A stretch of 64,000 bases of DNA from Takakia lepidozioides. Its lineage: Eukaryota; Plantae; Bryophyta. The notes under the pieces were generated by a model that saw nothing but the letters and a program-made list of their open reading frames with translations, was not told where the DNA came from and made no database searches. The translations under genes and the position numbers were made by a program. Location: contig CM060733.1 in assembly GCA_030704615.1 (NCBI GenBank), positions 50,902,001 to 50,966,000 of the forward strand, in the 5' to 3' direction. Positions 17,806 through 49,470 of the stretch are shown piece after piece. Within the stretch, counting starts at the first letter, position 1. Each line of letters opens with the position of its first letter.

Positions 17806-20800
17806 ATGGGGTCGGGCAAGACAAAGCGAAAGCGGAACGGCCTGAAAGATGATGATCCTGGTGAGCCCGGTGGAGGCAACGTGTCACCGAAGCGGCAATT
17901 GGAAGAGGCGATTTATGCTTCTGAAAGCGAGGCCGCTCAAGAATAGGAGGAATCTGGGAAGTCGGAGACCGAGGACTTCCCGGAGGCTCCGGCAGATCAA
18001 CAGATGTCTCCCATGCCAGCAGCCTTTTGGGAAGGGTTGTTGGCGCAGTTTGGCGGGACGTTGAAAGACGTGATGAGAGCGGCTAATGCCACTTCCACTA
18101 AGGCAAAGTTTAAGGTGAAGCCTAAGGAACCCGGCACCTTCGAGGGCGTCCGAAATCGGAAGGCACTCAACACCTAGCTCTTGGAGCTGGAGCAGTACTT
18201 CCGGGCACTACAACAGATTCCAGCTTTACCGTCTGTGACATTTGCCCAGTCGTAGCATATATGTCTACAAAATGCAAGGGGGCAGTCCTAGTTGCCATTT
18301 GTGACCATCAGAAGTCGTATATGCCATCTCGTTCCTCCGCCACGTCAGGATCTGCGGTCAAACACGTTTGACCAGATAGGGGAAGATGGTAGATAAGACT
18401 AGGAGTCATGGCCAAAACTGCAACAGGATGACGTGGGCGTGGGAATGTATGACTGCCAGTATTCACAACTTGCACGTGGCGATTGCCGGTTGCCCAAGGA
18501 GTGTGTACGTGGACGATGCAAACATAAATGGATGAAACATATGTAGGATGTGATTGCAAATGACGACGTGTCAACATATCATTGCTCGCGGGCACTAAGC
18601 CACACCCTAAATGAATGGATGAATGAATGATTAGGATGAATTAGGACGAGTGAACTAGGATGAATTAGGATGAATGTGCTCGAATTTAAGGTTGCAGTGT
18701 TAAGTATGAGGATAATAAGTAGTAAAAATATTTAACTATTGTTTCACTGACCCAACAGATTAACAATAAAACTAATCGACTGCTGGTTAAGGTTAGTGAA
18801 ACAAAACAACTGTATTATCTCAACGAATGATACACAAATGCCTTGCTGGCAACTATCGGATTAATGTATCAAACATAACTTTTGTGCACTGGATGAACGT
18901 ATGAATGAATGATACAACAAACGCCTTGCTGGCAACTATTGGATGAACGTATGAACGAATGATAATGCAAACGCTGAGCTGACAGCAATCGGATGAACTG
19001 ACAGTGAAACTCATTTAAAGAATTATTTTGGATGAATGGATGAAATTAAAATGGCCAAAAGATGGAAAAACAAATGAATGGATGGATGTATTGATGGAAA
19101 ACCCAAAATCCATCCATCTATCGAGGATCTAATTTACATTAGAAAAATTCTATAGATTTTTGGCCAGGTCCAAAAAACTAAAACCCCTTTCCCCTTTCTG
19201 CAGCTATCCCCCCAAAAACTGCATCAAACGAAGCTCATTTGACAAAAATATGACCAACCAGGCTCTTTAAACATAACACCCTTTAAAAAAAATAAACAAA
19301 TACAAGGGAAAATGTATTTTCAATAACTTGTCTTGGCTCCCTGTTCCCTGGTTCCCTAAGAATTCCCTGGACTCATGCCTGGCTCATATCTGAAAAATAA
19401 CGATCTTAGATTCTTAACTCAATCGCTCCACAGTGGAATTACCATGATAAAGGTAATGTCTTATCATCCATCCAGTCATGAGTAGAGGGGACTTAGCGTT
19501 TTTTTGTCTCCCCTGCCATCTGTTTGTTTTCTTTGTGTCGAGTTTGATCGTGAGAGACGACAAACAGGACAGAGCTGTGTTTGCTTTCTTTTAGTGTCGA
19601 GTCTGATCATGAGAGATGTCGAACAAGACGGAGCTATGTTTGTTTTGTTTTAGGGTCGAGTCTGATCATGAGAGACGACGAGCGGAGCTGGTGGGATAGG
19701 GGGCAGACAGGGACTCAAACCCTAGAATCGGGGCATGAAGAAATCCGTCCTGTGCGAAATCATTTCCAACTCGGCATGATGCGAGGCCTCTCGTATGAGC
19801 CAAGCGAGAGGATAGGGCCTTGCGTATGGGGTGGGTGTGCAGGAGGGTATGTCTTGTGCAAATGTGTGAATTTTGCTTTGTTTGCCCTTGTTTTCTCTCA
19901 CTAAAGTCGGAAGCAGGTTTGCTCGTCTTGGTTTCAGTAAAGGAGTTGGGTTGTCATCCGTTCGAAGCGAGGCGTTGGGTTGTCAGCCGTCATTGGCAGC
20001 CGTTCGAAGCAAGGCGAGGATGTATGCGTGATGTGTGCAGAGGCTGGGATAGCTGAAGGAGCAGGGATAGAGTGTGGGTCCAGATTCATCCAATATGGCA
20101 GGATATCAAGCACGATATTATCTGTGATTCCCAGCGGATCAGAGCTACAAGAAACCTGGGCACCTTCTTCTTCGACCTATTTTAGCTTGTGTTGCCCTCT
20201 CTCCAGACTTGGCCCTAAGATGCATATTGAATGCTGTAAGTTAGCTCGATGCTTGTTGATAAGTAGGGTTGGGGGTGTCTCCAGATTACCTATGATTCAT
20301 TGTGGAAGGATAGCTAAAAGAAACCTGCATGGATAGATGGTCAACTGGAAGCCGCAGCAGCAGCGGCACAATTGATAAAATCAAACACTACTAATGAAGG
20401 TAGTGGATTGCTGAATTTCGAGAGATGTCAGTGTATGCATCTTCTGCTCAAGCCTTTGGAAGTCTACATAGACTTTGTAACTTTGTGCATTTTTGTAGCA
20501 GCACCGGATTAGATTATGGAACGGATCTTTGAACATTAAGTCACGTTGTATTTGAATCGATGTTCCAATTTCAAATGTGCTTTCATGTTTCAATGGTGTT
20601 TTCGTGTGCTTTCAATGGTGCTTTCATGTTTCAATGCTGCTAGAGTTAGGCCCATGACTACGGTCATGTACACGACTACCTCCCATCCACAGAGCCTCTG
20701 CCACGTGCCACTTTCACCCCTCGTATTCGCCCATACTCGTGCCACGTGCAGTATCTAGAGTGCGCCATGGAAGTCATATGCTCCAGTCATAACGACCACC

Positions 20801-21848
20801 CCCATCCTGCATAATTTGATTCCACGTGTTATGTCCAGTCTTCTCCACGTGTTGTCCTAGGGTTAATCTGCGGAAGTCATATGCCAGTCGTAAAGACCCT
20901 GTCGCCGTCCCTTTGACGTGACACGTGGCATATCCCTTCCGTTCCACGTGAAGCTGACATGGATTCGTAGTCATTTACTACGGTCTTATCAATGACTATG
21001 ATTAGGCGTCCCCGTTGTCACGTCATCAGTGAGCTCCACGACTGGCAGATACGACTCTATGGCGCTTACGACTCATTTGTCACAACTGACTGGGTTTATC
21101 TGACTAGGCAGTTATGCAGTCATAAAAGGCTGATACGAATGGAAAATAATAGACGTAAAAGCCGGATTTTGTTGTAGTGGGGCGGCCAAGTTGAGTGACG
21201 AGGATCGGGTGGAAGTGGCTCCCACCTATTTGAAGGGCTATGCTCAACAATGGTGGCAAAAACGCCTTCATGACCAAGGTCTAAACCCAGAAACCTTGAG
21301 CTAGAGTGGGTTCAAGGAACTTATGAAAAGACAGTTTGTGCCCCTCAATGCGTCCTGGCTCGCCCGGGACAAGATGAGCAATTTGAAGCAAATGGATGAC
21401 ATTCGGGGATATATTCAGGCTTTCAATGTGCTGTTGCTCGAAGTCGCGGATATGGCAGAACCAGAAATGGTCTTCAATTTTGTGGCAAGACTGGTCCCAT
21501 GGGCCAGGCGGAAGTTGGAGGAGAAGCCACCTAAGACTTTGAACGAGGCAATTGAAAGGGCTGAATGTTTTTCGGATGTCCCTAGGGGCAAAAGACAAGG
21601 CCGCATGGAGCTGAACCACAAGGCGGGAAGGTGACCCCTTCCGACCGGAAAAAAAGTGGGATATGCCACGCGGCGACAATGGCACATAGAAATTGAAGGG
21701 AGGGCCTTCACACGTCAAAGCGGCACTCGGTGCTCCGAAAAGAAAATCAGGTGCGGCGGCTTATGGCGGACAGAAAGCGACCTTCAATGGAGTGTGCTTT
21801 AATTGCGGGGAGCCTGGGCATATGGCCAAGAAGTGCGCGAAACCCTGA
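17806..21848 (+). pseudogene. gag: gag of the outer chromovirus, split by the CACTA insertion (17806-18205 + 21183-21848)
   Basis: KPKEPGTFEG...LEQYF, then after the insert YLKGYAQQWW, FVPLNA..ARDKM..LKQ and the zinc knuckle CFNCGEPGHMAKKC (21795-21836). Contains premature stops. Confidence 0.8.
18206..21179. mobile_element. Non-autonomous CACTA (En/Spm) DNA transposon, copy 1
   Basis: Starts CACTACAACAG and ends TTGTTGTAGTG (~29-bp imperfect TIR), 3-bp TSD GGG, GGATGAA-rich subterminal repeats, no transposase. Homologous to 49818-54055. Confidence 0.92.
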
Positions 21849-21865
21849 CAATTGAATATGACTCG

Positions 21866-21950
21866 TGTCGTGCGCATACATATCGCTACACAACTACATC
21901 GCTGTCCAAACCACACCACACATATATGCACAATAAAGTAGTCTGCCACA
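21866..21950 (-). repeat. Terminal repeat B2 (85 bp) of the inner element
   Basis: Identical to 22317-22401; TG...CA ends. Confidence 0.95.
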
Positions 21951-21960
21951 ATGGGAGGAT

Positions 21961-22314
21961 TGATAAACAAAGCTAAAAAGGACATACACTTCCAACACAA
22001 GAAATATAAAATCCATCGCTATCACTCATTGAAACTGAAGTCGAGCCAGGGGCACCCCAAGCTATGGGGACTCCACCCCACAACAACCTGTATCCCTACA
22101 TAAGCACACTAAAACCTAAACACATGCAGGAGCTCGGTCGCGCAGGCTCAACTCGAGAGAGATGAGCCACGCGACTGCCGCTCTCGTGAAGATAAGATTC
22201 AGGTGTCAAACTAAACTTGACACCTGATTTAACACTTGACCTAAATCCAAGTGTTAAATACAAATAACTAGTTTTATTCTAGTTGTTTTCACACTGTGCT
22301 TATTTAACTTGACA
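21961..22314 (-). repeat. Repeat A2 (354 bp, LTR-like) of the inner element
   Basis: Near-identical to 33001-33357; TG...CA ends. Confidence 0.95.
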
Positions 22315-22316
22315 GC

Positions 22317-22401
22317 TGTCGTGCGCATACATATCGCTACACAACTACATCGCTGTCCAAACCACACCACACATATATGCACAATAAAGTAGTCTGCCAC
22401 A
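22317..22401 (-). repeat. Repeat B1 (85 bp) of the inner element
   Basis: Identical to 21866-21950; joined to A2 through a GC dinucleotide. Confidence 0.95.
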
Positions 22402-22414
22402 ATCGCCCCCCTAG
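22402..22414 (-). promoter_or_regulatory. Polypurine-tract-like plus-strand primer of the inner element
   Basis: The minus strand reads CTAGGGGGGCGAT directly before the TG of B1. Confidence 0.7.
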
Positions 22415-22661
22415 CTGGTGGATAGGTCCCTCTAACTCCAGATAGCTACAAGATGTAATAGCCACAGCCGTACTAAGTCCTCTATCACTGTCCCTATTGT
22501 ACTCAAACTCTATAGACCAAGAGGCCGGGTACAAGAGTAGCCCCATCGTTAGTCGCCGTCTTGCAATCTGTGAACTTGAGCCAGGACCTCGTGTGTTCAA
22601 GGTCTCCTAGTAGCTGGGCCTTGCGTTTCTTGTTAGCCTTCCATGGTTGTATCCACTCCCA

Positions 22662-25600
22662 CTATCCAATGCAATGTGGACATAACCAATCCCCATCCGG
22701 AACCATCTCAAGAGGTGGAGTCAAGCATCCCATATGCCAACCTCTAGAGCATCGATCACACACCAGCATGGTGGCTGCCCCTTTAGCAGACCCACACAAC
22801 ATGCACCTCAAACCTGCAGATACCACTGCCAGGTTTGGGTCAATCCTGCCATCGACATTCGGAAGGTGACATGGCGCACAATTACGCACATGGTCCTTCC
22901 AAGTTATGCCATCCCGACCCTCCAAGACCAAGACGCCTGAGGGCAAGACCTCTCGAACCCTCAAAATAACACGTCCTGCAGTCACATCCAGGGTCGTAGG
23001 AGCAGTCTGCTGCAGATAGACATAGTCACCAGGGTTGAATCTCCGAACCCCAGGACGATAGCCCCCACCACGTATGGTAGCATACCTCAACGTATCACGG
23101 TGTTGTGCAATGGCAAGGTTCTCGAAAGCCATGGGCATGACTCTCTTGAACAACTCTGCACGCTGCTCACATGCACGTGCCCACACGTCCGGATCGTCAA
23201 GGTTAAGAACTGTAGCAGCTTCTCTGCGAATGGATGTAGGCAAATCCGGCTCTCGGCCAAAGAGAAGAAAGTATGGTGAGAAGGAGGCAAGTGATGCTTG
23301 CTTGCTGAACCTGTAGCCCATGGCTAACCAGGGTAACTGAAGGTCCCAATCTCCTAGGTGTCCCTTCTGCAAGCCATACTTGCGCAAACCCCTCTTTACT
23401 GTCTGAACAACTCTCTCTGCCAAGCCATCGGCTTCAGGATGATCCCGAGAAGTGGTGCGGTGGTCTATCAAGGCCTTGTCACACAAAGCCTGAAACTCCC
23501 CCAAGAACTCTCTCCCTTGGTCCGTGAGTACCTCAGCTGGAGCACCGAATCGGCTAAGCACACAATCCAGGAATGCATACGCAGCTCCCTCACTAGCCTT
23601 ATCAGGCAATGGAACCAATTCAATCCACTTGGAGAAGTGCTCCACCATCACCAACACGTACTTGTTGTGGCGCATGGTCAGTGGCAACGGCCCTGCGAAG
23701 TCAAGACTCCACCTGTAGCCCAATCCCATGATCGGAAGAGGGTGCAATTGTGGAGTAGGGGCGTTGAATGAAGCACGCACCCTGTCACACACCATGCACC
23801 TAGCCACAAATTGTTGCACCTCTGTGTGCATACCACGCCACCAATACTGCCCCTGCAGTAGACTATGAGTGCGTCGCACCCCAAAATGCCCCAACTCCTC
23901 ATGGGCATGCCGCACTAACCGTGCCCGCTGTGTTGGGTGAGGCACAATCCTCACTCGACCATCCTCCCACACTCGGAGCAGGTGTGTCCCCTCCCACTTG
24001 AACCTCTTGGCTCGTTGTAGGATCCGATCCCTCTCCTTGGCAGTCATAGTGGCTGCCGTGTCTCCACTGCGGAGGTAGTCCAACACAACTGAATCCTCAT
24101 GTATATCTTTGGCGCCACCCTGCTCATTGCTGGCCTCAGGGTCCTCAGACACTTGATCTACAGTCATCCCTGTTGTAGGTCCAACCTGGCCTTCCGCTGC
24201 CAAGATACACAGAAATGCAGATGCATGCCATCCGGGCACCATCTCCTCGTCCGTCTCACCATGCCACCGAGCTCCAGTGTCATCCTGCTGGCTCGTGCAT
24301 GGATTGCGACTCAACCCATCTGCATTTCGATTGACCAAACCCGGTCGATGCACCACCTGAAAGTCATACTCTTGAAGGATGAGTGCCCACCGTGCAAGCT
24401 TCCCCGTAAGCTTGTCTGACTCCATCAACCACTTGAGTGGTTGGTGATCCGTGACAAGGGTGAAGAGATTGCCGTATAGATAGCACCTGAAGTGTGCCAC
24501 GGCCCACACTGCAGCTAAGCATTCTCCCTCATATGAGCTATACTTAGACTCTGCAGCATTGTTCGAGCGGCTAGCATAAGCCACTACGAACTCTCTTCCC
24601 TCATCATCCACCTGTGTGAGCACCGCTCCAAGCCCCAGCATGCTCCAATCTGTATGCAGCTGAAAAGGACGCCCCCTGATAGGTCGTCTCAAGATGGGCG
24701 CCGAGGTCAACCTCGCCTTGAGCTCTTGAAAAGCTTGTTCTTGCTCATCTTCCCACTGCCACTCCTGGTCCACCTTGGTCAGCTTGGTTAGAGCCTTTGC
24801 AATGGCACTAAATCCCTTAACAAACCGTCTGTAATAGTTTGCTAACCCCATGAAAGCTCGAACTCGGCTCACATCCGTGGGGCGTGGAACCTGTGCAATG
24901 GACTCTACCTTAGTCTGCTGTACCCCCAATCCTCCAGGATATATCATGTGACCCAGATACTCAATCTGGTTGTGGAAAAACTTGCACTTGCCCGGATGTA
25001 ACTTCAATCCGTGCGTCCTCAAGCGCTCAAATACCCCCTGAAGGTGTCTCTCATGCTCCTCCACCGTAGCACTAAAGATGATGATGTCATCTATGTAGCA
25101 CCGAGCAAACTCCACCCCTGCTAGAATCCTGTCCATGACTCTTTGAAACTCAGCGGGAGCGTTTTTAAGCCCAAATGGTAAGAACCGCCACTGGTATAGG
25201 CAATCCTTCCCGTGCTCATTGATCCCCCAGAATGCCGTCTTTTGCTTATCCGCCTCCTTGATCGGCAACTGGTGATATCCGGATCGTAAATCCAACGTGC
25301 TAAAGACCTTGGAATGCCCAATGGCATCAAAGATCTCCTCTGGTGTTGGCATGGCATACCTATCGGACTTGGTCTGACGATTTACAGGCCGGTAATCACC
25401 GCACATACGTCTCTCCGTCCAATTGCCATAGACATCCTTCTTAGCTGGCATCACTGTGGCTGAAGCATACTCTCCACCAGAGAGCTCCACCAAACCTGCC
25501 TCCCAGAGATCTTGAGTCCTCATCTGAATCAAAGACCTCTCCATGTCACTGTATCTATAGGGTCTCCGAAAGATTGGCGTGTCAGTGGCCAACTCAATAC

Positions 25601-25796
25601 GGATCTCTTGACCCTTCAGTGCTCCCAAGTCCTTCAAACTGAAGGCAAAGCAATTCCTGTAAGCCCTCAGGAACCGCCGTATACGTCGTCTCTCTCCTCC
25701 GGTGACAATGGGTCCAATGTCAGGCTCCCAATTGTCCTCCGTAACTGCAACCTTAAGTCCAGTGGGCTTAGAGGTAGAGGACGCGTCCCGTGGTTG
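22662..25796 (-). CDS. pol: Pol: reverse transcriptase - RNase H - DDE integrase - C-terminal PHD finger (open frame starts right after the TAG at 25797-25799)
   Basis: RT motifs LDLRSGYHQ, LPFGLKNAP and YIDD; RNase H LHTDWS, ECLA, TDH; integrase H-H-C-C plus SLDFAG, TDQGREF, GLAER; PHD C4HC3 CMLC..CDRC..WHMGC..WLCPHC. Confidence 0.95.
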   Translation of the reverse strand, partial: QPRDASSTSKPTGLKVAVTEDNWEPDIGPIVTGGERRRIRRFLRAYRNCFAFSLKDLGALKGQEIRIELATDTPIFRRPYRYSDMERSLIQMRTQDLWEAGLVELSGGEYASATVMPAKKDVYGNWTERRMCGDYRPVNRQTKSDRYAMPTPEEIFDAIGHSKVFSTLDLRSGYHQLPIKEADKQKTAFWGINEHGKDCLYQWRFLPFGLKNAPAEFQRVMDRILAGVEFARCYIDDIIIFSATVEEHERHLQGVFERLRTHGLKLHPGKCKFFHNQIEYLGHMIYPGGLGVQQTKVESIAQVPRPTDVSRVRAFMGLANYYRRFVKGFSAIAKALTKLTKVDQEWQWEDEQEQAFQELKARLTSAPILRRPIRGRPFQLHTDWSMLGLGAVLTQVDDEGREFVVAYASRSNNAAESKYSSYEGECLAAVWAVAHFRCYLYGNLFTLVTDHQPLKWLMESDKLTGKLARWALILQEYDFQVVHRPGLVNRNADGLSRNPCTSQQDDTGARWHGETDEEMVPGWHASAFLCILAAEGQVGPTTGMTVDQVSEDPEASNEQGGAKDIHEDSVVLDYLRSGDTAATMTAKERDRILQRAKRFKWEGTHLLRVWEDGRVRIVPHPTQRARLVRHAHEELGHFGVRRTHSLLQGQYWWRGMHTEVQQFVARCMVCDRVRASFNAPTPQLHPLPIMGLGYRWSLDFAGPLPLTMRHNKYVLVMVEHFSKWIELVPLPDKASEGAAYAFLDCVLSRFGAPAEVLTDQGREFLGEFQALCDKALIDHRTTSRDHPEADGLAERVVQTVKRGLRKYGLQKGHLGDWDLQLPWLAMGYRFSKQASLASFSPYFLLFGREPDLPTSIRREAATVLNLDDPDVWARACEQRAELFKRVMPMAFENLAIAQHRDTLRYATIRGGGYRPGVRRFNPGDYVYLQQTAPTTLDVTAGRVILRVREVLPSGVLVLEGRDGITWKDHVRNCAPCHLPNVDGRIDPNLAVVSAGLRCMLCGSAKGAATMLVCDRCSRGWHMGCLTPPLEMVPDGDWLCPHCIG

Positions 25797-27446
25797 CTAT
25801 GCTGCAACCTCTTGAGCAGTACCCCCTTCCTGCTCAGTCAATGACAAGGCCTCATCCTGCCCCATCATCTCATCATTGAGAACCTCCTCATCCCGAGAAG
25901 AATCCCCAACCTCATCCATCACAGCTGCCTTCGCTGCCAACTCCCTCTGAACCTCGAGCACCTCCCACATGTGCCATGGATGTCTACACCTCGTGGTCCT
26001 CACCGGCTCGCCCCCACTCGCTGCCTGTACCGTCTCGGTAGGCAGAGAGACCATCAAGGGAAGTGCACTCCGCACTCTACGTTGCTCAGCCATAGCCAAG
26101 CTGACAATCCAGGTCAAGCAATTGAGATCCATTGCTTGCCCCAACACCTGACGACGTGATGCCTCAGAAAGAGAAGGCACCGCCGTGGTCCCAGTGGAAA
26201 ACCCCATAGCCCGCTCTCGCTCGTCGGCATTAGGCTCCACTAACTGCTGCAACTGAGCATCCCACAGGAGGCCAGGTCCACCATCCCGAAAAGCATGGGA
26301 TCCTGGGAAGCTGAGCAGTGTAGGTAATGCTGCTCGTGGTTGACCCACTCTGTTGACCACTGCCAAAGGCGAACGGTCATCGTGTCTCACACGTTGAGAC
26401 TGCCTTCCTGTGTCCAAAATGCCATCCACGGTGAGGTGTGCTGGCCGCTGCACCCCATCAAATGCACGCTTGAGCAGTGCGGGTGGCATCAAGTTAGTCC
26501 ACCATAGTCGTGGACGATGAGCCCGTGACCCCACTGCAGCTGCATCCAGCAATACTGCTGACCCAAGCCACGACCGGACTTGATGCACACTGGCCATCAC
26601 CCTGGCCCGAGAATCACCCATCAGTGGCACATTCTCCAAGATGTATGCCGGAGATACAGCCTGATGAAGCTGCAAGTGGCGCAAAATCCGCACCATCTCC
26701 CAAAACAGACCCGTCCTCGAGTCTCGCAATCCATTGCCATGCCCGGCTGATGAATGCCCTTGGCAGGGCCAACCTGCCACTACCAGATCAATGGAGCCAA
26801 CCCGCTCCAAATCCTGCGCCCCCAGCAACGAAATGTCTGCTGGCAAGGCCTGCTGATATCCACGAACTGCAGACACCTGCAACAACTCAGGGTGCTGCTG
26901 CACCATCTGAGCAACATGGCGCAGTGAGACGCGTCGTGCAGTCTCATCCCTCTCCACATACAGGTAACGTCGAACTCGTACACCTGCCTGCAGCACTGCA
27001 GCCAATCCAGTGCTGATCCCGCCAAACAAGTCCAGAAGGCATATGCCTTCATCCGGTCGCTGCCACACAAGAGGTGTGGTGTCCAATGGCGACAACTGAG
27101 GTGGCCCTGGTACAATCACCGCACTCTCCTCCTCTCCTGACGGTACAAAAGCTTCTACCCAAGCTTGTTGCACCCGTCCATCAGCAGCGTGCTGCAAATC
27201 CTTGCTCGTACCCCACAACGGAGTGTGAGCAACCATGGCAGGCAACTCCGCCGTACCATGCATGTCATCCTGCTCTGCTGGAGGTGGCACATCCTCTGCA
27301 TAGGCATTGCCTTCCAGCAACTCTCCAGGCCAACTGACTGCAGCTGTGAAGGCGGCTAGTGTTGGCATCTTGCCCCGCTGGCAGCTGCAATACCCCCAAT
27401 GAATGTCACAGGGAGCTGTGCACGGCGACCATCCCCTGACTGCCAT
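25797..27446 (-). CDS. C5 DNA cytosine methyltransferase domain (DNMT3-like, non-permuted) inside the retrotransposon polyprotein region
   Basis: Motif I LDLFGGIS, II YVE, III DI, IV VAGWPCQGHS (catalytic Cys), V GLFWE, VI ILENV, VIII AHRPRLWWTN, IX ERERAMGF and X RRQVLGQAM, in canonical I-X order. Confidence 0.93.
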   Translation of the reverse strand: MAVRGWSPCTAPCDIHWGYCSCQRGKMPTLAAFTAAVSWPGELLEGNAYAEDVPPPAEQDDMHGTAELPAMVAHTPLWGTSKDLQHAADGRVQQAWVEAFVPSGEEESAVIVPGPPQLSPLDTTPLVWQRPDEGICLLDLFGGISTGLAAVLQAGVRVRRYLYVERDETARRVSLRHVAQMVQQHPELLQVSAVRGYQQALPADISLLGAQDLERVGSIDLVVAGWPCQGHSSAGHGNGLRDSRTGLFWEMVRILRHLQLHQAVSPAYILENVPLMGDSRARVMASVHQVRSWLGSAVLLDAAAVGSRAHRPRLWWTNLMPPALLKRAFDGVQRPAHLTVDGILDTGRQSQRVRHDDRSPLAVVNRVGQPRAALPTLLSFPGSHAFRDGGPGLLWDAQLQQLVEPNADERERAMGFSTGTTAVPSLSEASRRQVLGQAMDLNCLTWIVSLAMAEQRRVRSALPLMVSLPTETVQAASGGEPVRTTRCRHPWHMWEVLEVQRELAAKAAVMDEVGDSSRDEEVLNDEMMGQDEALSLTEQEGGTAQEVAA

Positions 27447-28760
27447 CCAGGCCTGTAGGATGCTGACTCCTCCCAGAAATCCAGGGTGAAGCCCATGGGG
27501 TATAACACTGCCCCACCAACGAGGACATCGTAAGAGACCGCGTCTGTCACAATGGCCTTGGCTCGCATCACTGAGCCATCTACAGGATGATCCGGCTGCA
27601 GTCTAATAGCCAACTGATGCCGTGTCATGCCGCGAGCCTGCTCTGATCCTCCCAGAGATGTCTGTATCTGGAAAGGACAAGGCTCCATATCCGCCTCCAT
27701 GAGGCCCAAACCTGCAATAGCAGCTCTGCCCAACATCAGTGGCTGAGCTCCTGAGTCCAACAAGACCCGCAGTGGCCGGTACTTCTTGCTTGCCGGTCCA
27801 CTCAAAGTGAAAATGCCTCCCTGGTTGTCTAACAAGACAACTCCAGGTGTCACCATGGCGCGCTCAATGGCTGGCCTAGCTGGCAGCTCCGTCAATCTGG
27901 CAGCTGCAGCTTGCCAGGGCGCTGCCGTGGCAGTCTTGACCCTCAAATCCGAGGATCCCTCTGCCACTACACCTTCCACTAACTCCGCAGAAGATGAAGT
28001 GACCTCTTGACTCTCGCAGAGTGTTGCTGCTAGTCTGAACACTGCAGCTGGTCTCACTCCCGGCGTCGCAATCATGGTTGCCGAGAACAATGGGGCTTGA
28101 CACACAGAGGTGGCTGCCCCCAATAACACACCGGCCGTACTAGCCTTGGCAGCAGGAGTCAATGCTGCACGTGTAGCTCTCCCCAATGGCATAGTAACCT
28201 CCGCCTCGGTAACAGTCGGGCGAGAACTAGGTGCCATGGATGGCGTTGACACTGTCTCCGCCAAGGTGAATGACTGAGGCAGCCTTGCCTGGCGGCTTGC
28301 CTCCCCACGTTGTGGATCCAACTCCACCTCTGCACCTCGTGGCTCAGGAACTCGTGTTGCTCCTCGAGTCACGGCTGCAGCAGACTCCACCTGCTCTAAT
28401 GGTAGTGCTGCTCCGCACATAAATCCCATGCCTCCCATATCTCCTCCCTCAGGAGCAGGAGGTGGACCATCCCGCCTGGGAGCCGGTACCGCCTGAGCTA
28501 TAGTCATGGCAGCGAGCCTCTGCTCTAGCTGCTGAAGCCGGTTGGCCATGCCTTGATCAACGCCCTGACCTCCACGTCCTTGGCCATGTTGAGCTTGCCC
28601 TTGGCCTGCACCTCGTGCCCGACCACCTCGTCCTCTTTGGGCTGGTCCACCTCGCCCCCGGCCACCATTGTTCCCTTGGAACTGGCCTGGGCGCAACTCA
28701 GGATGCAAGTCATAACACTGGGCATCTCCATGCCCATATTGCCACAATGCCCACACTGCA
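27356..28760 (-). CDS. Gag C-terminal G/R/Q-rich region and aspartic protease of the inner element
   Basis: Second half of a zinc knuckle (YGHGDAQC), RGG-rich stretch, protease active site VLLDSGAQPL and downstream YDVLVG. Confidence 0.8.
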
Positions 28761-29996
28761 ACTGTGCAGGCTGTGCTTGTGCCGGCCTTCTGCCACTCTC
28801 TGGGCAATCTCTCTTGACATGGGGTCCTCCACATGTCCAACATATCACCCCTGGTTGCTGTTGGCCTGCAAAAGATGCCACGGGCCTTGCACCTGAGGCC
28901 CCCTGTAAGCTCCATGGAACTTGGGCTGGGCAACCTTGCCCCCCTGACCACGCTGTTGGGCAGTCCCTTGTGCTTGTGGGCTGACAACTGTGCCCCGTAC
29001 AGGCATGTCCTTGCCAAATCCAATTGTAACAACTCGTTCCTCCACCATGTTGAGCTCAATCCGCTCAGCCAGCAGAAACACATCTGCTAATGTGGGTTGG
29101 GCTGCTTGTAACAGGGTTGCATCTCGCACCCTTCTCTTGAGCTCCTTGTCCAGAATTCCATACCAAAACTGGATTGCCTGAGCTTCAGTAACCCCTTGGG
29201 TCACACTTATCAAGCGCCTCATACGAGTGTACGCCTCTCGCAGGCTCTCACTGGGTTTGCGCTGGAAGTCTTGCAAACTTCGCAGCTTCTCTGTCCGTAC
29301 ACCTTGGTAGTTCCTTCGCAACTCCTGGAAGAACTCCACCACCGGGTTGAATCTAGGCACATGGGTTGTAGCTGTGGCAGGAGGAGTAGTAGCACCTTCT
29401 GAACTGGTACCACCTGCAGAAGTACCAGCACTACCTGCTCCACTACTAGTGCTGGCAGTGGGAGCTATTGGTACTGATGCAGCTACTGGTCGCGTCATGC
29501 CTCGAGTAATGGAGATGTAGTCAGGTGACCAATACATCCTCCACTCCTCAATCTCTGCTTCATGTCCTCGCCTGAACTCGTGGTAATCGTCCATAGGCGG
29601 GCCTTCCAAATGCTGGAACAGTCCCTTCCACGCCATGAATGGGGTGAATAGATGTGGATTGCGCATCTGCTGCAAATCACACCAGCTGTCGAACTCCTGG
29701 ATAAAGTCATCCAACTCGATTGTGCCCACAGCTCCAGAGTACCTACGAGGCCCCTTGGTAGCTCCATACATCTCCTCCATGTCGTCCCACAACAATGGCG
29801 AATGAAAGTGCACACCTGTTGATGAAGCCTCCGAGCCTGTGTCTGACTCTACAGTAATTGAGGGTGGCGGTGAAGGTGGTCTGAACCGAATACCTCTTCT
29901 TGTGAACCCACTCTCACTGTTACTGCCTGTAGCCGTACTCCCCTCAAAACCCTTGGGTAACTCCGTAATGACACTCACAATGTGCACCTCCTCCAC
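28740..29996 (-). CDS. gag: Gag (capsid plus zinc knuckles) of the inner element, broken by 1-nt frameshifts; first in-frame ATG at 29780
   Basis: Retrotrans_gag-like LQDFQRKPSESLREAYTRM...AIQFWYGIL; the knuckles CWTCGGPHVKRDC and CGHCG/xYGHGDAQC continue in successive frames. Confidence 0.8.
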
Positions 29997-30515
29997 GTGA
30001 CACTATAAGGTTCTAGTACTAATCTAATAGTGACACGGGTGGGCACCTGTTGCAGTCTAAGGGTCATATCCCAATGGCTCAGGGCACCTGCACCTGCATC
30101 CACCGCAAGAACTCCTATGGTTGGCTGGTCATCAACCCAGCCTCACCATAGAAGAAACACTGGTGGTCTTGCTGGTCATCACTCCAGCCTCACCACCGAC
30201 AGCATACTCTAGGATTGACCGGTGATCAAATCCGGCCTAATCCCTATGAAAGCAAGCGCCCACACAAAACCAACATGGCGCACAGTCAAGCATGCAGGTG
30301 TTGGGGGGGATCCAAACACAAGAAATCAAAACATCAACACCCCCACACCAAAATCCAGCAGCAACGCTGATCCTGCAGAATATCCCAGCCCAAAACCCCG
30401 GACTGACTGGCCTCCACCAAGAGAGGCTTTGGCAACTACAAGTATAAGGTAATGAAAATAGTACAGAGATGGAGGGGAAGAATAGAAGCCCGACCAAGCA
30501 AGATCTAATCCTGAT

Positions 30516-31265
30516 CTATGCTATCAACTGCCAGACTTCTCTCAAAGTGCCTCGCTCTGCATGATGGTAAGGTGTAGGAGGTATATCTATGTCCAGAAAC
30601 CTGCCACTAACCTTGTCCCAAGCTACAGTAGCTCGCTCTAACCAACCCTCCTCCTCTTTCTGCCAGGTAGAGACAAAGCAATACTCCCCTATCTCCCGCT
30701 CACTGAACACTAAAGAAAACAAAGGTAGGGTCTGATAGTCTCTCAACTCGAAAGCTTTGAGACGGTTGCGGGTGTCCTCATTGCGAATGACTGCATCTCC
30801 TTCACGCACAACAAACATGTCATTGCTGATGAACCCCCGCTCATGGTTGCCCTGTGCAGAGCGTATCCGGCTGCAACCATGTCTGATTGCACAAACTTGT
30901 GTAGCTCCTGCTCCTCTGCTCCAGTACACCACGGCCTTGTGACTGAAAACCTTGGTCCCCGGGGCTGTCTTTGGCTGTGTTCCAAGCCTAGCTTTCACCC
31001 ACTTTGGTATTTCACCTACAGCTGCAGAACTGCTGGCTCCAACAGAGTTCTGACTGTCCAAGGCAATATTGAGGCCCTCAATGCCAACTACAGCAGTCTG
31101 TTGTCTACTGCTAATGCCTGACTCCCAGTATGCAATCAACTCGTCCAACTGTTCTCCACTCAAATCAGTCTGAGTTCCTTGGGAAACATAAATCCTGTCC
31201 CCTTGTGTGCACAGGCTAAGAGAAGAGACCTGCCCTTCAATTACGTCCTCATTTCCCCCAGCCAT
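30516..31265 (-). CDS. Extra 249-aa ORF upstream of gag in the inner element, function unknown
   Basis: Intact ATG-initiated ORF on the element's sense strand within the 3-kb leader; no recognisable motif. Confidence 0.55.
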   Translation of the reverse strand: MAGGNEDVIEGQVSSLSLCTQGDRIYVSQGTQTDLSGEQLDELIAYWESGISSRQQTAVVGIEGLNIALDSQNSVGASSSAAVGEIPKWVKARLGTQPKTAPGTKVFSHKAVVYWSRGAGATQVCAIRHGCSRIRSAQGNHERGFISNDMFVVREGDAVIRNEDTRNRLKAFELRDYQTLPLFSLVFSEREIGEYCFVSTWQKEEEGWLERATVAWDKVSGRFLDIDIPPTPYHHAERGTLREVWQLIA

Positions 31266-32983
31266 GCAAGGAGTACATCCACAGATTTGTCTCTCATATA
31301 GACCAGCACAGGTTCTAGAGACAGGATTGTGGATCTTTTATGGCCCACTCACACTCTAAAAATTCCATAGATTTTTAGCAGAGTCCCAAAAACAGAAACC
31401 AGGTCTAGGTAGGTAGATTTCCCCTTTCTGCAGCTATCCCCCCAAAAACTGAGTCAAACAGAGCCCATATGACAAAGATATGACCAATTAGGCTCTAAAT
31501 CATTCGAATTAGATCAAAAAGGCTTTTTTTTTTTTTTTTTAACACCAAAACGTTCTCGCCATTAAAAACTGTTCCCATGTTATCTACGGGTTGATCTGTC
31601 GGATAAGTGATATCCACACTTGTGCCCTCCGTTCCCTGCAGGTTCCCGATTTTCCATCTGAACAGCCCGTCTCGAGTTCTCCACACATGGGCGGGTCTTG
31701 GGGAATTACGATGAATACAATGGCACGCTGAAGCTCAGCAGCAGGTAGACAATGTGTCCATTAATGTAAAGAGCCTGGCAGATCGACAGTTTGAAACGAT
31801 CAATGCTTCATCTCCTGTTATGCCATTCGCATCAGCCTGCCGTAGATTGTCTGTCAACCAATATCCGAGTTCAATTGTCCAAGCAGAAATCTACTAGAAA
31901 TCTACCAACCGGCTACTGATTCCATAAATACTGGCAACTCCCATTCTGGATCTGTACTCAATGGATCAGTATAGAGTGGCTGCCCTTAGGGCGCGCTTCA
32001 TCCCAACCAGGGTAATCTGCACTGAAGCCGAGATGACACTTGAAGCGGCTGCTTCCACAATGCTCCCTCTTTGGTGCATTCATCGTGCTAATCTAGCACT
32101 GCCCAAACCACGCCACAAACTCTCGTTGGTGCAGGAAATATGGCTGCCGCATTGCAGGTCTCGGGTCAGGCTCTCCATATCCTAGGCGTGCATATTGCTG
32201 CTGATATTGGGGCTGCCTTCAAATTGACTGCCAATAGGCCCGAACCTTAATTGCGCACTTGCTAGAAAATCTAGCCTGACCCCGTCCATCCATTTGCTTG
32301 CTTCCTCGCGATGTGCAGCCAGACAACCTCACATCAACCAGCCCACAACCACTCCTTCATGGTGGCTGGACTATAGTCGCACACCGACTTCCCACCCATT
32401 GCTAGTAACCATTCCACATGAAAGCCAACGACGGCACAATCTGCCTTCATGCCAGCCTGTCCCTCCTCGCTGACCAAGAAAACCAACGATAGCCAGCCAA
32501 CTTCTCAACTCGGCCTTTACTGATTGCACACCCTGATATATGCCATGAACAACTTCACCAAATCGTTTGTCATCAGTACCGATATACCATTGGGACGACG
32601 ACTTGTAGACATGAGCCCATCAACCAGTCCAACACCTTGGCTGCTCACTATGTGCAGGTCTGAAACCATCAGTCTGCTCAGGAATTACCTATAGCATGGT
32701 ATTTTTATCTCTGCAGCTGAAGTCGAAGACCACGGTCCACCCACTCGCGTAACCAGCTGCACCTCCGCTTCTAACCACCAAGACAATGAAGGCTTGCATC
32801 CCAGCCTTGCGAGACAACAATAATGCTGATCGTTTCACCATGCTCGGCTCTCAATCTGCCGCTCAGCCAGTGACCGTTAAAAGGGAGAATACCCATGCAC
32901 TTTTGTGTTACCGCTTTCAACACACACAAAATCCACAAGTGCTAAAAACTAATTAAGCTCACATCTTGCACTCACAGATGCAA

Positions 32984-33001
32984 GCTCAATCTCTCTCGAG
33001 T
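32984..33001 (-). promoter_or_regulatory. Self-complementary primer binding site of the inner element
   Basis: No TGG/tRNA PBS. The sequence is a 13-nt perfect (17-nt with one bulge) reverse complement of 33191-33207 inside repeat A1. Confidence 0.7.
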
Positions 33002-33357
33002 GATAAACAAAGCTAAAAAGGACATACACTTCCAACACAAGAAATATAAAATCCATCGCTATCACTCATTGAAACTGAAGTCGAGCCAGGGGCACCCCAA
33101 GCTATGGGGACTCCACCCCACAACAACCTGTATCCCTACATAAGCACACTAAAACCTAAACACATGCAGGAGCTCGGTCGCGCAGGCTCAACTCGAGAGA
33201 GATGAGCCACGCGACCGCCGCTCTCGTGAAGATAAGGCCATTCAGGTGTCAAACTAAACTTGACACCTGATTTAACACTTGACCTAAATCCAAGTGTTAA
33301 ATACAAATAACTAGTTTTATTCTAGTTGTTTTCACACTGTGCTTATTTAACTTGACA
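33001..33357 (-). repeat. Repeat A1 (357 bp, 5' LTR-like) of the inner element
   Basis: Near-identical to 21961-22314; starts TGTCAAG on the minus strand and is flanked by the TSD. Confidence 0.95.
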
Positions 33358-33447
33358 CTCGGGTGACCACAGAGCTATCCGAAGATTCCATCAGCCGCTT
33401 GGTGGAAACGGTGGTCGCCAAGACTTGTAAGGTATGAAACTACTCTT

Positions 33448-38954: not shown

Positions 38955-39515
38955 CTAACAGGCGAGTAAGAATATTCGCCCTCCTCGAAATACTTTTTGC
39001 ATGCTTATCGAAAAAGTAAAAAGTGGCAAGACAACGTCTCCGTCGGTCCCACGCGCAAGTCTCGTGACCTTATAGACCCTTGTGTTTGAGAGGACTGAAC
39101 ACTCAATCCATTGACTTTCAGCAGAGCCAAGCCAAAAGTGCTTGACATTTGCACTTGCACAAGTATTCATACAATGCACTCGATCCTTCTTCCCAGATCT
39201 GGGAGAAAGAAATTCCACCACTACTAGTGGAGGAGAATTGCTAGCATCAAAGTATATGGAGGTATTTGGGATCATCTTCGGATATGGAGGTACTCTCGAT
39301 GCCGCGATATCATAGCAAAAAGAGCTTCCCTCGTAGAACATTGAGGCGTCTACGGAAAAAGCGTATTCTAGCTCTAGTCCACTTTGGTCGGCCCCACCTA
39401 CTAACTCAGCTGAAAGATATGTCACCGCGAAGTTGAGTTTGCCGGCAGCGATACCAAACCAATGGAAAGCCCCTCTACACACAAATGGTGTCGGGCGGAC
39501 ACAATGGCCAACCAA
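38955..39515 (-). pseudogene. Uma2/DUF820-like PD-(D/E)XK nuclease-fold ORF, probably degenerate
   Basis: PPLVVVEFLSPRSGKKDRVHCMNTCASANVKHFWLGSAESQWIEC matches the Uma2 pattern PxLVVEVLSPSxxxxDRxxKxxxYAxAGVxEYW; no introns and no clean ATG start. Confidence 0.6.
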
Positions 39516-41379
39516 TCCAAAAAATGGACCCTTCCAATTGCAGCCTCTTTCACAATATCATTCTCAAATACTCCCGCGGACGTGTGACAATTCCGATACA
39601 AGAATGAATTCTTGTGATAGCACTGCATCGGCAACAGAAGACCTCATTTTCACCCAGACACGTTTAAACAAACAACATACATTGGAGAACACATGCTTCC
39701 CCAGCCTTGACTATCCCCTTGCACATCCTACGTAGCGAAGTGCCCTACCTCCTCCTAACACCGGTTTGAAGCCCAAAACAGAACACACTTTTTAATTGCA
39801 TGGTCTAGGGAGTGCCTTTGGTTGTACATATAGCGATGGACAATACAAGATCAAGATAGAACAGGCACAATACAGTAGACCACTCCCCCAGACAAAGAAA
39901 TATTCAGTTTCCAACAAATTCAGCTTGTACGCCTATAAGATTGAAATGAGCTGGACCAAAGTCCTGACCTCCGATTTGAAGGTATCTGAAAAGCTCTTCA
40001 TCTGTGGAGCCAACTCATCCCTCGTTTGTGCCCCCTGAAAACAGGCACTCAGTTGCATAATCAGACTGCCCTCATTCATCTCCTCCTTTGAGCAACTTGT
40101 TTGAGTAACTTGAAACCAACAAAGTTCCGAAATTATCGAGCCCCAACCCACCATCCCCGAGTTATAAAAGGAATAGATCAAGAGAGGACTTCTAACGGGG
40201 CTTTTATCAGGGCGATGTTAAACCGGACATGTAGAAGATTGAGGTGAGGCCCAGGGTTTCAACAAGGTGTTGACTCTTACAAAACTATCTCCCCCCCTAA
40301 AAATCCTAGATGACCTCGCAAGAGCATACAAGTGGGGCGACTCCGCTACAGTTGTCGATGAACGTCTCAATGATGACAGCGCTCTCGTACTGTAACATTA
40401 GCCGCAACAAACTGCCAAAGAGGTGAGCATGAGCACCATTACCTTTCTGGGCCATATCCTCGATAGCTTTCGAGGACCGCAGTGCAAACCTTTGAAATGA
40501 TGGCTGCAAGACCACAGACAAGAGCTTTCGCAGTTACAACTCTGCGTAATTCAGCACTACGATCTCTTATCCACCAGTTGGGACCTTTTCGCCATCCCCA
40601 CATCTCTAAGGTGTTTTAATTTAACTCTATGCCATGCCCAGGATTAGGTGACTTTACGTCACCGGTCGTGAGATCCTTTAGAATGTTTCACAATGTCCCA
40701 GAAACAGTATGAAATAATTTCAAACAGTGCATGCAGAAACGGAGACCATGGAAAGTGAGAGACAAAGAGGGGGGAGGAGCTGGTAACTGAAGGAAGAGAC
40801 AAGCAAGTACCTGTTAGCAAGGCGATCGACAACGGTCTGGTTGACATTGTACTGCATCACCCGTGCTGAGAATCCGCCTCCCCTTCCAGCCATCGCTTGG
40901 AATTGGTGGCAGCAAAAGCCCCAAAATCCCTGACAATGGTCTGGTTAACATTGTACTGCATCACCCGTGCTAAGAATCCGCCTCAAAATAAATTGACGAC
41001 GAAACGTGGCATACGATGACATGGCAACTCATTTTTCAGGTTTCCCTGCATGTCTTTATGTGTTTGTCGTCAGCAAGCTCCAAACCCCTAAGCACGATTT
41101 GCAGGGAAAGTCTAACCAGCATTGCCAGCAATTGAATTGGGTTGATGGGTTGTTGAGATGCTGTTTACTTCTTCTCATTCCTACATTCATGAATACTTCT
41201 AATAGCAGTATTGTGGCAGGGCGGCGTATGTCTCTGCCCGGTCCCTGTATGTAAGGTTGCTTTCATGAGGTCTGTTCATGTAGACCATCTCTTTGCCCGT
41301 GTCTGTTTGGAGCTGCAATTTGTGCTGGAAAAAATGGAAATTCATTCTGTTGACAGGGACACAATTGTGATTCAAGCCC

Positions 41380-46100: not shown

Positions 46101-48019
46101 CTTAAATTGATGCAATGCTATTTCATATGATATATGCCAATTTGTTCAAAGGTTCACTGAGTTGTTTCCTTCTATGCTTGTAAACATGCAGATGATAATG
46201 TTGGGGCTCTCACGATGGTTTGAAGCTGATCGATCTCTTGCTCTCATGTGCCTAAGAGCCCTGCGTCATCATTGGGCTGACTTCATAAATGGTTCCTTAC
46301 TTGAAAAGAGAAAGGAGGCACCATCAGAGGGAGAGAATCGGCTGGACTCCTCCTTTGCAATGTCTTTGACAAGAACTAGGGGTCCAGACTTAGAGGACAG
46401 AGCTGATTTGGTTTCCTTTCTCCACTTGCAGCGACGGGCCCTGTTACTTCTCTTCAGGATTGGGTCGTTGGTAACCAAAGACCTAATACCGAGTAAACTT
46501 ACTGGGTTAGAGTCCACCAGGTTTCCTGAGGCAAATGGGGTGACTGGGGTAGGACCCATTGGAGCCAGTGTGTCAGAACTCAATAATCCTATGCCAAATA
46601 AAATTAGTGGATCAGAACCTAGCTCACGTGGTTGTTTTAAACCAAGAGACCTGGGTGATCTACAGGTACCTTGGGCACATTCTAGAAACTCAGGTAGTAG
46701 TTGTGGTTTAGAGTCAGATACGTTGAGTGGTTCAGAGTCAAGTGCAACCGGGGAGGAAGGGAAAAGACCTCATGGACCAAGTCTAAAGAATGATATGTAC
46801 ATGCAAGAGGTTAAGAGGGCAGTGTGGGAATGGGTGGAGGTTCAGGGTCAATGTGTCGCCAGGGTCTCCATGATTGGAGGCCTTGACCTTGATGACAGTT
46901 CAAGTAATGCCATTAGTGAGCTCTCAATGTCTCTGGTGCAATTGTATCTCGATGAGGATGACATGATGCTGGAAATGCTCCTGCAGCTTATGGAACTGGC
47001 CCCTTTGCTACATTGTCCGGAGACTTTTGAATCAAGGGCTTCAAGTGTGGTTGCTGCAGCATTCAGCCCAATGCAGCTCTTCCATGTATTCCTGGCAGTG
47101 ATAAGGTATGATCAGACAGTGCTGGTCGACTTTCTTATCTCCGAAAATACAGGCACCTTGTGCTTACGTTACCTCATGGGATGTGCACACCTAATTCGCC
47201 GCACATGGCCTGACTTTCGGGGAGCTGCACCCTGTTATAATGGCGTGGCATCAGACGGGGCAAGCCATTCTTCCTTCCAGATGAAATTGCTGCAGACTAG
47301 CCCACAAGTCCAGTTCAGGAAGGCAATCACTTGTTTGATGGAGCTACGGCTGGCAATAGAGCGCTTGCACCGCCGGCAACTATTTCCATACAATCCCTCA
47401 GCCCTACTCCGGCGGTATACACTCTTTCTCCCTCCCCCAATAGCTGCTTGCGGTACTGGCCAGGTGGTGATTTCATCACTGTCCCTCCAATCTTTTCAGG
47501 TTTTGTACTTTATTCTTGGAATTGGTATACCAGAGACAAGTTGCAAATGGATGATATTGGCTGTGAGGACGCTATGTTGAGGTCTTTGACTTCGAGCTCC
47601 ACATCCACATGGGTACATATGTCATTTTGTGGAGCATCAATAACTGGTCTAAGACAATATTTAGTGATGCTATGCCAGCAATCAGGTGGGAGGATGTCGT
47701 CGGTTTTATGCACCCCAAGCTTGGGTAAGTAGGTAGAGACACAGAAAACATTGATGCTGCCTCAAGTGCGCGTCTTTTTGGTGTCAAGTGTGGTTAACGT
47801 ATGTGTGGCTGGTCCACAAATACACATCCTTAACTATGTGTGCAACCCCCGTAGATAATTTTTAGCAAACTTGCATAATCTGTAATGTAGGAACAATTCT
47901 TGTTCTAACATTGTAATTAGTGCGGTGGCAGCTTTGAAGTGCTTGAGGAACTGTTTCAACAGGAGCAGGAGCTTGAGCCAAAAAGTTTGAAGTTCAGCCA
48001 CGATCTTTTACCAGGATAG
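43125..48019 (+). CDS. Protein Lines homolog (LINS1-like; LINES_N/LINES_C); 5' exons uncertain, firm exons ~44918-45844, 46192-47414, 47932-48019
   Basis: LYLDEDDMMLEMLLQL, PMQLFHVFLAVIRYDQTVLVDFLISENT..CLRYL and CLMELRLAIERLHRRQLFPYNPSALLRR match Lines family motifs; GT-AG junctions keep the frame. Confidence 0.8.
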
Positions 48020-49067: not shown

Positions 49068-49470
49068 AATTTTGCATTGAGAAAATAAAATTAAGTAACA
49101 GTTTTGGGGGTGAAAGTTTTAATTTCGCACTGAGAAAATAAAATTAAGTAGGAGTTTCGGGAGTGTGAGTTTTAATTTCGCAGTGAGAAAATTAAAATTA
49201 AGTAGGAGTTCTGGGGGTGAGAGTATTAATTTTGCACTGAGAAAATTAAATTAAGTAGGAGTTTCGGGGGTGAGAGTTTTAATTTCGCACTGAGAAAATT
49301 AAATTAAGTAGGAGTTTCGGGGGTGAGAGTTTTAATTTCGCACAGAGAAAATTAAATTAAGTAGGAGTTTCGGGAGTGAGAGTCTTAATTTCGCACTAAG
49401 AAATAAAATTAAGTAGAAGTTTTGGGAGTGAGAGTTTTAATTTCGCATTGAGAAATTAAAATTAAATAGG
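49068..49470. repeat. Minisatellite, ~53-bp unit, ~7.5 copies
   Basis: Unit AATTTCGCACTGAGAAAATTAAATTAAGTAGGAGTTTCGGGGGTGAGAGTTTT repeats head-to-tail with no unique spacers. Confidence 0.9.

Follow-up and report, generated by a model that had tools for sequence, protein, structure and literature searches.

KnitGypsy-Dnmt3 is a Gypsy retrotransposon of Klebsormidium nitens whose repeats are called DIRS-like in the legend of Fig. 4 of de Mendoza et al. 2018 (PMC5890265). Its account of these repeats mentions neither a primer-binding site (PBS) nor a polypurine tract (PPT), names no target duplication or palindrome and proposes no mechanism; the term PHD is absent from the main text. Self-priming has been described for other elements. 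The primer of Tf1 is the first 11 bases of its own RNA, which are cut off by RNase H (PMC7175516). A plant survey reported that self-priming is dominant only in Tcn1 (Gypsy) and TAR (PMC6317226), and the summary of that survey includes no group with a DNMT or a PHD finger (PMC6317226, Additional file 5). The integrase of foamy virus cuts a CA-AT-TG junction on both strands in vitro and leaves 2-nt overhangs (PMC1180852). Further related literature is available (PMC2864245, PMC9940879, bioRxiv 10.64898/2026.05.21.726589). The literature searched contains no account of self-priming or of integration at an internal LTR site in the KnitGypsy-Dnmt3 lineage; REXdb may contain such elements.

The window, which is the whole 64,000-nucleotide stretch of Takakia lepidozioides DNA analysed here, contains an element that is a land-plant member of the streptophyte Gypsy-DNMT3 (KnitGypsy-Dnmt3) lineage. 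The original prediction for this locus proposed Tf1-type self-priming and missed a more unusual feature, namely integration ends that lie inside the LTR. The repeats, ends and priming signals of the element are as follows.

21866..33357, minus strand: whole element, 11,492 bp, in the order A1-PBS-coding-PPT-B1-A2-B2, with ends TGTC…GACA
33358..33361, minus strand: upstream copy of the 4-bp target-site duplication, CGAG on the minus strand
21862..21865, minus strand: downstream copy of the 4-bp target-site duplication, CGAG on the minus strand
33001..33357, minus strand: repeat A1, 357 nt, probably the 3' part of U3 followed by R and U5; its start is the left integration end
33191..33203, minus strand: self-primer sequence, with the A at 33203 as predicted +1 (placed from relatives) and a predicted primer of about 12 nt
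32984..33001, minus strand: PBS, with a 13-nt core (33001-32989) and an extension to 32984 with one bulge
22404..22412, minus strand: PPT, directly before B1 and not A2; same position in five related families
22317..22403, minus strand: repeat B1, 87 nt, probably the 5' part of U3 of the true LTR
22311..22320, minus strand: palindrome GACA-GC-TGTC at the B1/A2 joint, with the integration ends face to face across 2 nt; putative integrase site
21961..22314, minus strand: repeat A2, 354 nt, with a second primer copy (22151-22163) inside the full hairpin
21953..21960, minus strand: 8-nt filler at the A2/B2 joint, putative scar of cDNA end joining
21866..21952, minus strand: repeat B2, 87 nt, with the same sequence as B1; the right integration end is at its terminus

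A1 and A2 are 98.9% identical in the window and had been taken as the whole LTR. This assignment does not hold, as the 87-nt repeat B is found on both sides of A2 and the element ends with B2 (21866) and not with A2. The PPT adjoins B1 on its upstream side, which makes B+A the true LTR. A contig of X10 crosses from 33357 to 21860 without the insert and represents the empty site. Loose ends were found in run X8 exactly at 33357, continuing into other DNA, and in run X6 at the B1/A2 palindrome. Relatives were detected in at least 502 of the 600 metagenome stretches examined, and the best 80 loci were used for comparison. They are short-read metagenome contigs, of which L074 and L108 are collapsed assemblies (B, A and PBS of L074 occur in one run). 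The 4-bp duplication at the start of A1 and the end of the last B is perfect in 9 of the 11 copies with both ends (ten loci and the window), and the two imperfect duplications match at 3/4 and 2/4 positions. The B1/A2 joint features a 2-nt spacer (GACA-nn-TGTC) in 18 of 19 distinct joints, and the same spacer is found in L108. We consider it highly probable that the integrase site is located inside the LTR, at the B/A palindrome. The distinct 3' ends consist of 15 with B-A-B and 11 with a single B, and three single-B copies with both ends visible have the duplication. Possible sources of the single-B copies are one-LTR circles, integration through both palindromes, and annealing between the two B repeats. 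One relative, L120 (4965-5230), has a left end in which the PBS and the final bases of A adjoin an inverted PPT-B1 block; this looks like an inversion or autointegration product, still ending at the B-end GACA.

The arrangement is probably explained by a chain of events consisting of self-primed cDNA synthesis, integrase action at the internal LTR site, and joining of the free cDNA ends, and we hold this chain as a whole with moderate confidence. All of its steps are read from inserted copies, in which the sequences, duplications, joints and covariation are directly visible. The RNA would begin at about 33203 in A1, as suggested by the TATA spacing in relatives. Its 5' end is complementary to the PBS and is predicted to pair with it, and RNase H would then, on the model of Tf1, sever the primer after roughly 12 bases. 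Reverse transcription of the ordinary LTR type, with the PPT as the start of the plus strand, would lead to a linear B-A…B-A cDNA, a product that is suggested by the observed positions of the PBS and the PPT. By analogy with foamy virus, the integrase would open the left B/A palindrome after each CA to give two processed ends with 2-nt overhangs, and these ends would be inserted with the 4-bp duplication that is observed together with them in the copies. Shortly before or shortly after insertion, the natural cDNA ends would be joined head to tail, either by host repair or by a template jump of RT, giving the A2/B2 joint whose sequence is present in the copies. As a result, the short LTR piece on the left would become attached to the right-hand end of the element. 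In the window family, the hairpin would stop the 3' primer copy from mispriming. The bias for the left side could possibly arise if the PBS-side joint becomes double-stranded first during reverse transcription.

The nature of the integrase substrate can be read in a second way. The self-priming would be the same, and the substrate would be a free, closed two-LTR circle that is opened by the integrase at either B/A palindrome. Two-LTR circles are described as arising by end joining in the nucleus (PMC7197481), the A2/B2 joint is composed like the junction of such a circle, with retained PPT bases and filler in L078, and one-LTR circles would account for the single-B copies. However, opening at the other palindrome would yield A-B-A…B, and none of the 19 distinct 5' ends (18 loci and the window) carries a B upstream of A1; this speaks against the random opening of a free circle. 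The count of A-B-A…B versus A…B-A-B is 0 of 9, with p = 0.004 under an even choice. The circle would need an additional bias toward the PBS side, at which point it merges with the explanation given above, and as a separate reading it is unlikely.

In the favored route through linear cDNA and an internal cut, the A2/B2 joint fuses the base that precedes the PBS with the one that follows the PPT, and the joint partners would be the natural ends of a linear B-A…B-A cDNA made with a primer of ~12 nt. The end of A2 is the cDNA end expected from a 12-nt primer in the window and in family 3, and from one of 11-12 nt in family 2. Nine of the 15 distinct A2/B2 joints are exact and identical within a family. 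The other six are altered: the window has an 8-nt filler, L078 has a 17-nt filler with two PPT bases, L114, L131 and L149 have lost 1-2 nt, and L109 is without most of B2. Alteration was found in 1/19 B1/A2 joints versus 6/15 A2/B2 joints (Fisher p = 0.028). In 10/10 rows the similarity of B2 to its own B1 exceeds the mean for the other B1s, and its own B1 ranks first in 6/10. Other B2s do not resemble it more than other B1s do, as the two means differ by at most 0.01 in every one of the 10 rows. Because B2 is closer to its own B1 and the joint varies between insertions, the joint is likely made afresh for each insertion, and a fairly strong case exists that it would be remade in each cycle.

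Inheritance of the joint is assumed in a DIRS/Ngaro-like reading, according to which the RNA spans A1-B2, both B repeats and the A2/B2 joint are inherited, the B1/A2 joint templates a circle junction for the integrase, and the PBS match is secondary. This reading is consistent with the 9/15 joints that are identical within a family and with the order A1…B1-A2-B2, which is that of Ngaro, PAT and VIPER (PMC6681497), and the repeats of KnitGypsy-Dnmt3 were themselves called DIRS-like (PMC5890265, Fig. 4 legend). The B2 distances and the variation of the joint by insertion speak against it, and the PBS right after A1, the PPT right before B1 and the TATA in the middle of A form an ordinary LTR layout. 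We regard it as quite improbable. A separate observation was made at the 3' end of L116 (3361-3878), where A2 is followed directly by the primer copy and then by an inverted U3 that runs back to the A start (GACA). The two U3 pieces differ at 12/180 bases. A U3-containing RNA used as primer, for example the 3' copy, would be expected to leave this arrangement, and L116 may preserve a trace of such mispriming. It is a single contig, possibly chimeric.

The favored route begins with priming by the element's own RNA. The minus strand directly 3' of repeat A1 (33357-33001) reads CTCGAGAGAGATTGAGC, and the PBS core (minus strand, 33001-32989) is ACTCGAGAGAGAT, in which the first A is the final base of A1. 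The 13-nt complementarity between 33001-32989 and 33191-33203 within A1 was found to be perfect as originally described, with the right coordinates and sequences, and the 17-nt match with one bulge was confirmed, reaching 32984 on the PBS side and 33207 on the target side. The PBS is also, as had been claimed, without a TGG start. A match of at least 13 nt was reached in only 1 of 20,000 dinucleotide shuffles of A1. The bulged PBS base is absent from run X2 contigs totaling 3241 of 7062 depth units (11 contigs) and likewise from the sole X5 contig that spans the site. Several contigs from other copies track the window as far as 32989 and then end or diverge, so that the 13-nt core is the part of the PBS that has been kept. 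The PBS is followed by a long 5' untranslated region (window 31620-32990, minus strand) that few copies share. The X2 depth is about 700-3,000 over this region versus at least 400,000 across most of the coding region, which indicates rapid turnover; the untranslated region turns over quickly while the PBS core stays.

Comparison of five families, using one best-preserved copy per family, revealed five different PBSs that are complementary to the family's own A repeat over 13, 12, 14, 16 and 16 nt, and the PBS/target complement between families is 0-8 nt in all 20 pairs. The observed match length was reached in 1, 14, 1 and 0 of 20,000 shuffles for four of the families and in 0 of 5,000 for the fifth. 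Compensatory change between the PBS and its LTR target is thus found across relatives, each of the five PBSs fitting its own LTR, and the complementarity is kept through differing sequences, which supports the original prediction of Tf1-type self-priming. Based on the family-specific PBS/target pairs, the rarity of such matches in shuffles and the TATA spacing in relatives, self-priming of the Tf1 type by the element's own RNA is very likely. A strict scan for matches of at least 10 nt detected the site at the right place in 4/11 A1 copies of family 2 and in 2/7 distinct copies of family 3, though the site is visible in the alignments of most copies. The decayed copies in these families are old, and the LTR pairs of family 3 are 86-92% alike. 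Among the 11 family-2 A1 copies, five have deletions in the primer hairpin and one is without the PBS. The five A1 repeats (L077, L078, L083, L112 and L127) carry differing deletions across the hairpin, and deletions were found in 0/4 aligned A2 repeats. Internal coding-like sequence abuts A1 at position 2013 of L084, where the PBS and the region following it are deleted.

Priming by a host RNA, either a tRNA or a tRNA half, would make the LTR match a product of chance or a DNA-level by-product, for example an aid to plus-strand transfer. In its favor, the PBS starts with A-(C/T)-T in all five families; an ARAGORN screen of the window and the 80 relative loci detected no tRNA genes. The five differing PBSs nevertheless each fit their own LTR and no other. 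A TGG start is found in none of them but is present at 17753 in the host element of the window. This alternative is very improbable. The last alternative, that A…B-A-B is an artefact of misassembly or of a nested A-LTR element inside a B repeat, takes up the fact that A1 and A2 of the window are both TG…CA and resemble a complete LTR pair, and it is refuted by the duplication that surrounds A1/B2 and is missing around A1/A2, by the A1/B2 borders of the empty site in the X10 contig, and by the recurrence of the A…B-A-B layout in two further families from other hosts.

The start of the self-priming RNA was placed by comparison. A TATA box is located at -31 (L087), -32 (L134) and -29 (L074) from the first A of the target in three of four related families. 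Because the TATA box lies 29-32 nt before this A in relatives, the RNA start in the window would be at about 33203. The window family has TTATCT at that offset and no canonical TATA, and the nearest TATA-like word in L108 is ~58 nt upstream. In the window, L074 and L108 the complementarity reaches 3-4 nt beyond the proposed +1 on its upstream side, and the RNA start may therefore lie a few bases earlier.

The target sequence was originally described as the 12-nt loop of a stem that masks the 3' copy of the primer. RNA folding gave the two arms below.

33203..33217, minus strand: 5' (U3-side) arm of the hairpin, from folding; variants in other copies at 33208, 33209 and 33216
33175..33190, minus strand: 3' arm of the hairpin, from folding

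The stem formed by 33175-33190 and 33203-33217 is recovered, with pair probabilities of 0.96-1.0 in full-length A1, and its 14 pairs are interrupted by a 2x1 internal loop. The target does not coincide with an open 12-nt loop, as its first base and the 17-nt extension sit in the 5' arm and the predicted loop contains a 3-bp inner pair. Predicted pairing with the PBS is near zero when the full hairpin is present. For RNAs that start at 33210-33200, folding predicts target/PBS pairs with at most nine target bases, the majority at p of 0.96-0.99, and folds begun at 33217 or farther upstream have no target/PBS pairing; in the window fold only 9 target bases are paired with the PBS. The real U3 arm of the window weakens the predicted PBS binding from -18.4 to -2.4 kcal/mol, and equally weak binding was obtained with 1/200 shuffled U3 sequences. 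The corresponding numbers are 4/200 for L074, 28/200 for L108, 55/200 for L087 and 169/200 for L134. The masking part of the original description is consequently retained for the window and L074, the two of five families that beat shuffled U3, and is not borne out for L108, L087 and L134. A simple opening-energy test on the window gave no masking signal (7.0 against 6.2 kcal/mol), whereas the binding test showed masking. Masking of the primer by the hairpin is partly supported by these models and appears to be family-specific.

The coding region of the element features the following frames.

30516..31337, minus strand: 273-aa open frame upstream of gag; no Pfam hit, tblastn 0/80 loci, Atlas hits at most 0.85
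28845..30002, minus strand: 5' part of gag; weak Retrotrans_gag hit, E 1e-3, below the cut-off
27356..29086, minus strand: 3' part of gag and protease-like region; no Pfam hit; frame broken at both ends in this copy
26073..27092, minus strand: DNMT3-like C5 cytosine methyltransferase; Pfam PF00145, E 2e-13; motifs FGGISTG, PC, ENV and RPR
25797..25799, minus strand: in-frame TAG that separates the DNMT frame from the RT frame; the next bases are CAACCA
22662..25796, minus strand: RT, RNase H, DDE integrase (D699, D759, E794) and C-terminal PHD finger; 1044 aa, open

The domains follow the Gypsy order RT-RNase H-integrase. The protease-like region (27356..29086) contains a DSG motif that we take to be its mark, and in the window copy the frame is broken twice between gag and the methyltransferase. 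The catalytic motifs of the methyltransferase are kept, its nearest solved relative is DNMT3A (E 6e-11), and a DNMT hit was obtained in 60/80 relative loci, many of the remainder being short. CARYYA is a readthrough context. A stop followed by CAA or CAG before RT is found in 26/29 rows of the nearer families and in 0/11 distant rows, and 7/11 distant rows are without a stop within 60 codons. Since the stop with its CAA/CAG context is common to the nearer families, the TAG at 25797..25799 is likely a readthrough stop. Readthrough of this stop, if it occurs, would yield more methyltransferase than RT and integrase. No chromodomain hit was obtained in the window element with Pfam, and a PHD finger is present instead. 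No tyrosine recombinase was detected in five frames of the window and 10 of the 19 listed frames of four relatives, and an rve integrase is present. The possibility that the 273-aa frame is a hidden recombinase was dismissed on account of its lack of a Pfam hit, its absence from the 80 loci and its Atlas hits of at most 0.85.

The relatives with a named source belong to Calypogeia, Marchantia, Riccia, Sphagnum, Klebsormidium, Closterium and chlorophytes. An RT-RNase H tree was built by a quick method from 48 rows, with five left out as split or short matches. It places the window in a 26-row RT clade with three Klebsormidium proteins (SH-aLRT 96), which are database proteins that may correspond to the published KnitGypsy copies. 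The 26-row clade is nested in a 37-row clade (SH-aLRT 100) that leaves out two chromodomain-type rows; the base of this tree, which is without named Tf1/Tcn1 rows, is unresolved. The viral collection contained no member of the lineage and three distant Gypsy-like contigs (39-41% identity). The remaining viral matches are records of 7-9 kb with about 27-34% identity, taken as caulimoviruses by their size and RT position. The lineage has a high copy number in this host, with more than 100,000 contigs of run X2 over a 12.2-kb stretch that is mostly element. A more distant PHD-bearing Gypsy protein, P0116, has Pfam PF05869, presumably a Dam-type adenine methyltransferase, in place of the C5 enzyme.

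The element sits within an older, broken chromodomain Gypsy (window 17289-38070, plus strand), between the gag zinc knuckle and the protease of this host element. The LTR segments of the host element are 94% identical and its TGG-type PBS at 17753 presumably fits tRNA-Met. Two long open frames elsewhere in the window, one for a LINES-family protein (46111-47580, plus strand; 31-40% to nine hits, which are from mosses where named) and one for a RING-finger protein (10377-11315, plus strand), are probably host genes or retrocopies. The region 48938-57109 contains a 53-nt tandem array, nested inverted repeats of up to 222 nt and long dispersed repeats shared with 18205-21179, with PPR-like fragments near 53100-53600. 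A 200-aa frame at 38955-39557 (minus strand) gave a weak Uma2-type endonuclease hit (E 2e-4, below the cut-off).

Self-priming alone is already known in plants from Tcn1 and TAR, and what is unusual here is its combination with ends inside the LTR. We lean, with some reserve, towards viewing these elements as an old and widespread Gypsy lineage of green plants in which an LTR-internal palindrome has replaced the cDNA ends as the integrase site, each productive insertion carries the end-to-end joint of its own cDNA, and self-priming was gained separately from Tf1/Tcn1. Standard LTR finders would overlook the group, as its long repeat pair has no flanking duplication. A retrotransposon with a DDE integrase and ends inside the LTR breaks the rule that integrase acts on cDNA termini. 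If the proposal is true, the two-LTR junction, a dead end for most retroelements, would be an obligatory step here, and the lineage would offer a natural test case for the old question of whether end-joined LTR junctions can be productive intermediates. An internal site would also free integration from the exact ends that a self-primer leaves. The layout would explain the DIRS-like repeats that were noted without explanation for KnitGypsy-Dnmt3 (PMC5890265, Fig. 4 legend). Given its high copy number, DNMT3-like enzyme and PHD finger, the lineage may matter for genome annotation and methylomes of non-seed plants.

Comparison with KnitGypsy-Dnmt3 reveals a shared Gypsy domain set with a DNMT3-like methyltransferase in pol and a shared DIRS-like repeat layout (PMC5890265). 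The two differ in that the window element belongs to land plants, with named relatives in Calypogeia, Marchantia, Riccia and Sphagnum, and in that KnitGypsy-Dnmt3 is drawn with DNMT and RT in one open frame, whereas the window subgroup has them in the same frame with a stop between. Tf1/Tf2/Tj1, plant Tcn1 and the copia element TAR also feature a PBS right after U5 that is complementary to the middle of the LTR (PMC7175516, PMC4600332, PMC5341516, PMC6317226). The window PBS is likewise complementary to its own LTR and, lacking TGG, probably not to a tRNA 3' end, and an RNase H domain is present, for which primer release is a predicted role. Tcn1 and Tf1 are chromoviruses, whereas the window element has a PHD finger and no chromodomain, and the duplication of Tcn1 is 5 bp in 100% of cases (PMC6317226), whereas that of the window lineage is 4 bp with ends inside the LTR. 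The element is therefore Tf1-like at the priming step but falls outside the Tf1/Tcn1 chromoviruses by its lack of a chromodomain, its 4-bp duplication and its split ends. The non-chromoviruses Phygy and Selgy share the 4-bp duplication, although the NCGN preference described for Phygy was not seen in the window lineage, and their PBSs are for tRNA-Trp or tRNA-Ala, whereas the window PBS is without TGG and fits its own LTR. Ngaro, PAT and VIPER share the split direct repeats A1…B1-A2-B2 (PMC6681497), but the window element has a DDE integrase, a protease, a PBS, a PPT and a 4-bp duplication, and no tyrosine recombinase was found in the frames searched, so the common layout is likely convergent. 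Foamy virus integrase resembles that of the window element in being a DDE enzyme with a palindromic CA-NN-TG joint, which the latter would cut in the same manner (PMC1180852). The foamy virus palindrome is described as arising only by ligation of the natural ends, whereas the window lineage encodes the palindrome in every LTR, and its natural ends form a separate, non-palindromic joint that is kept inside the inserted copy.
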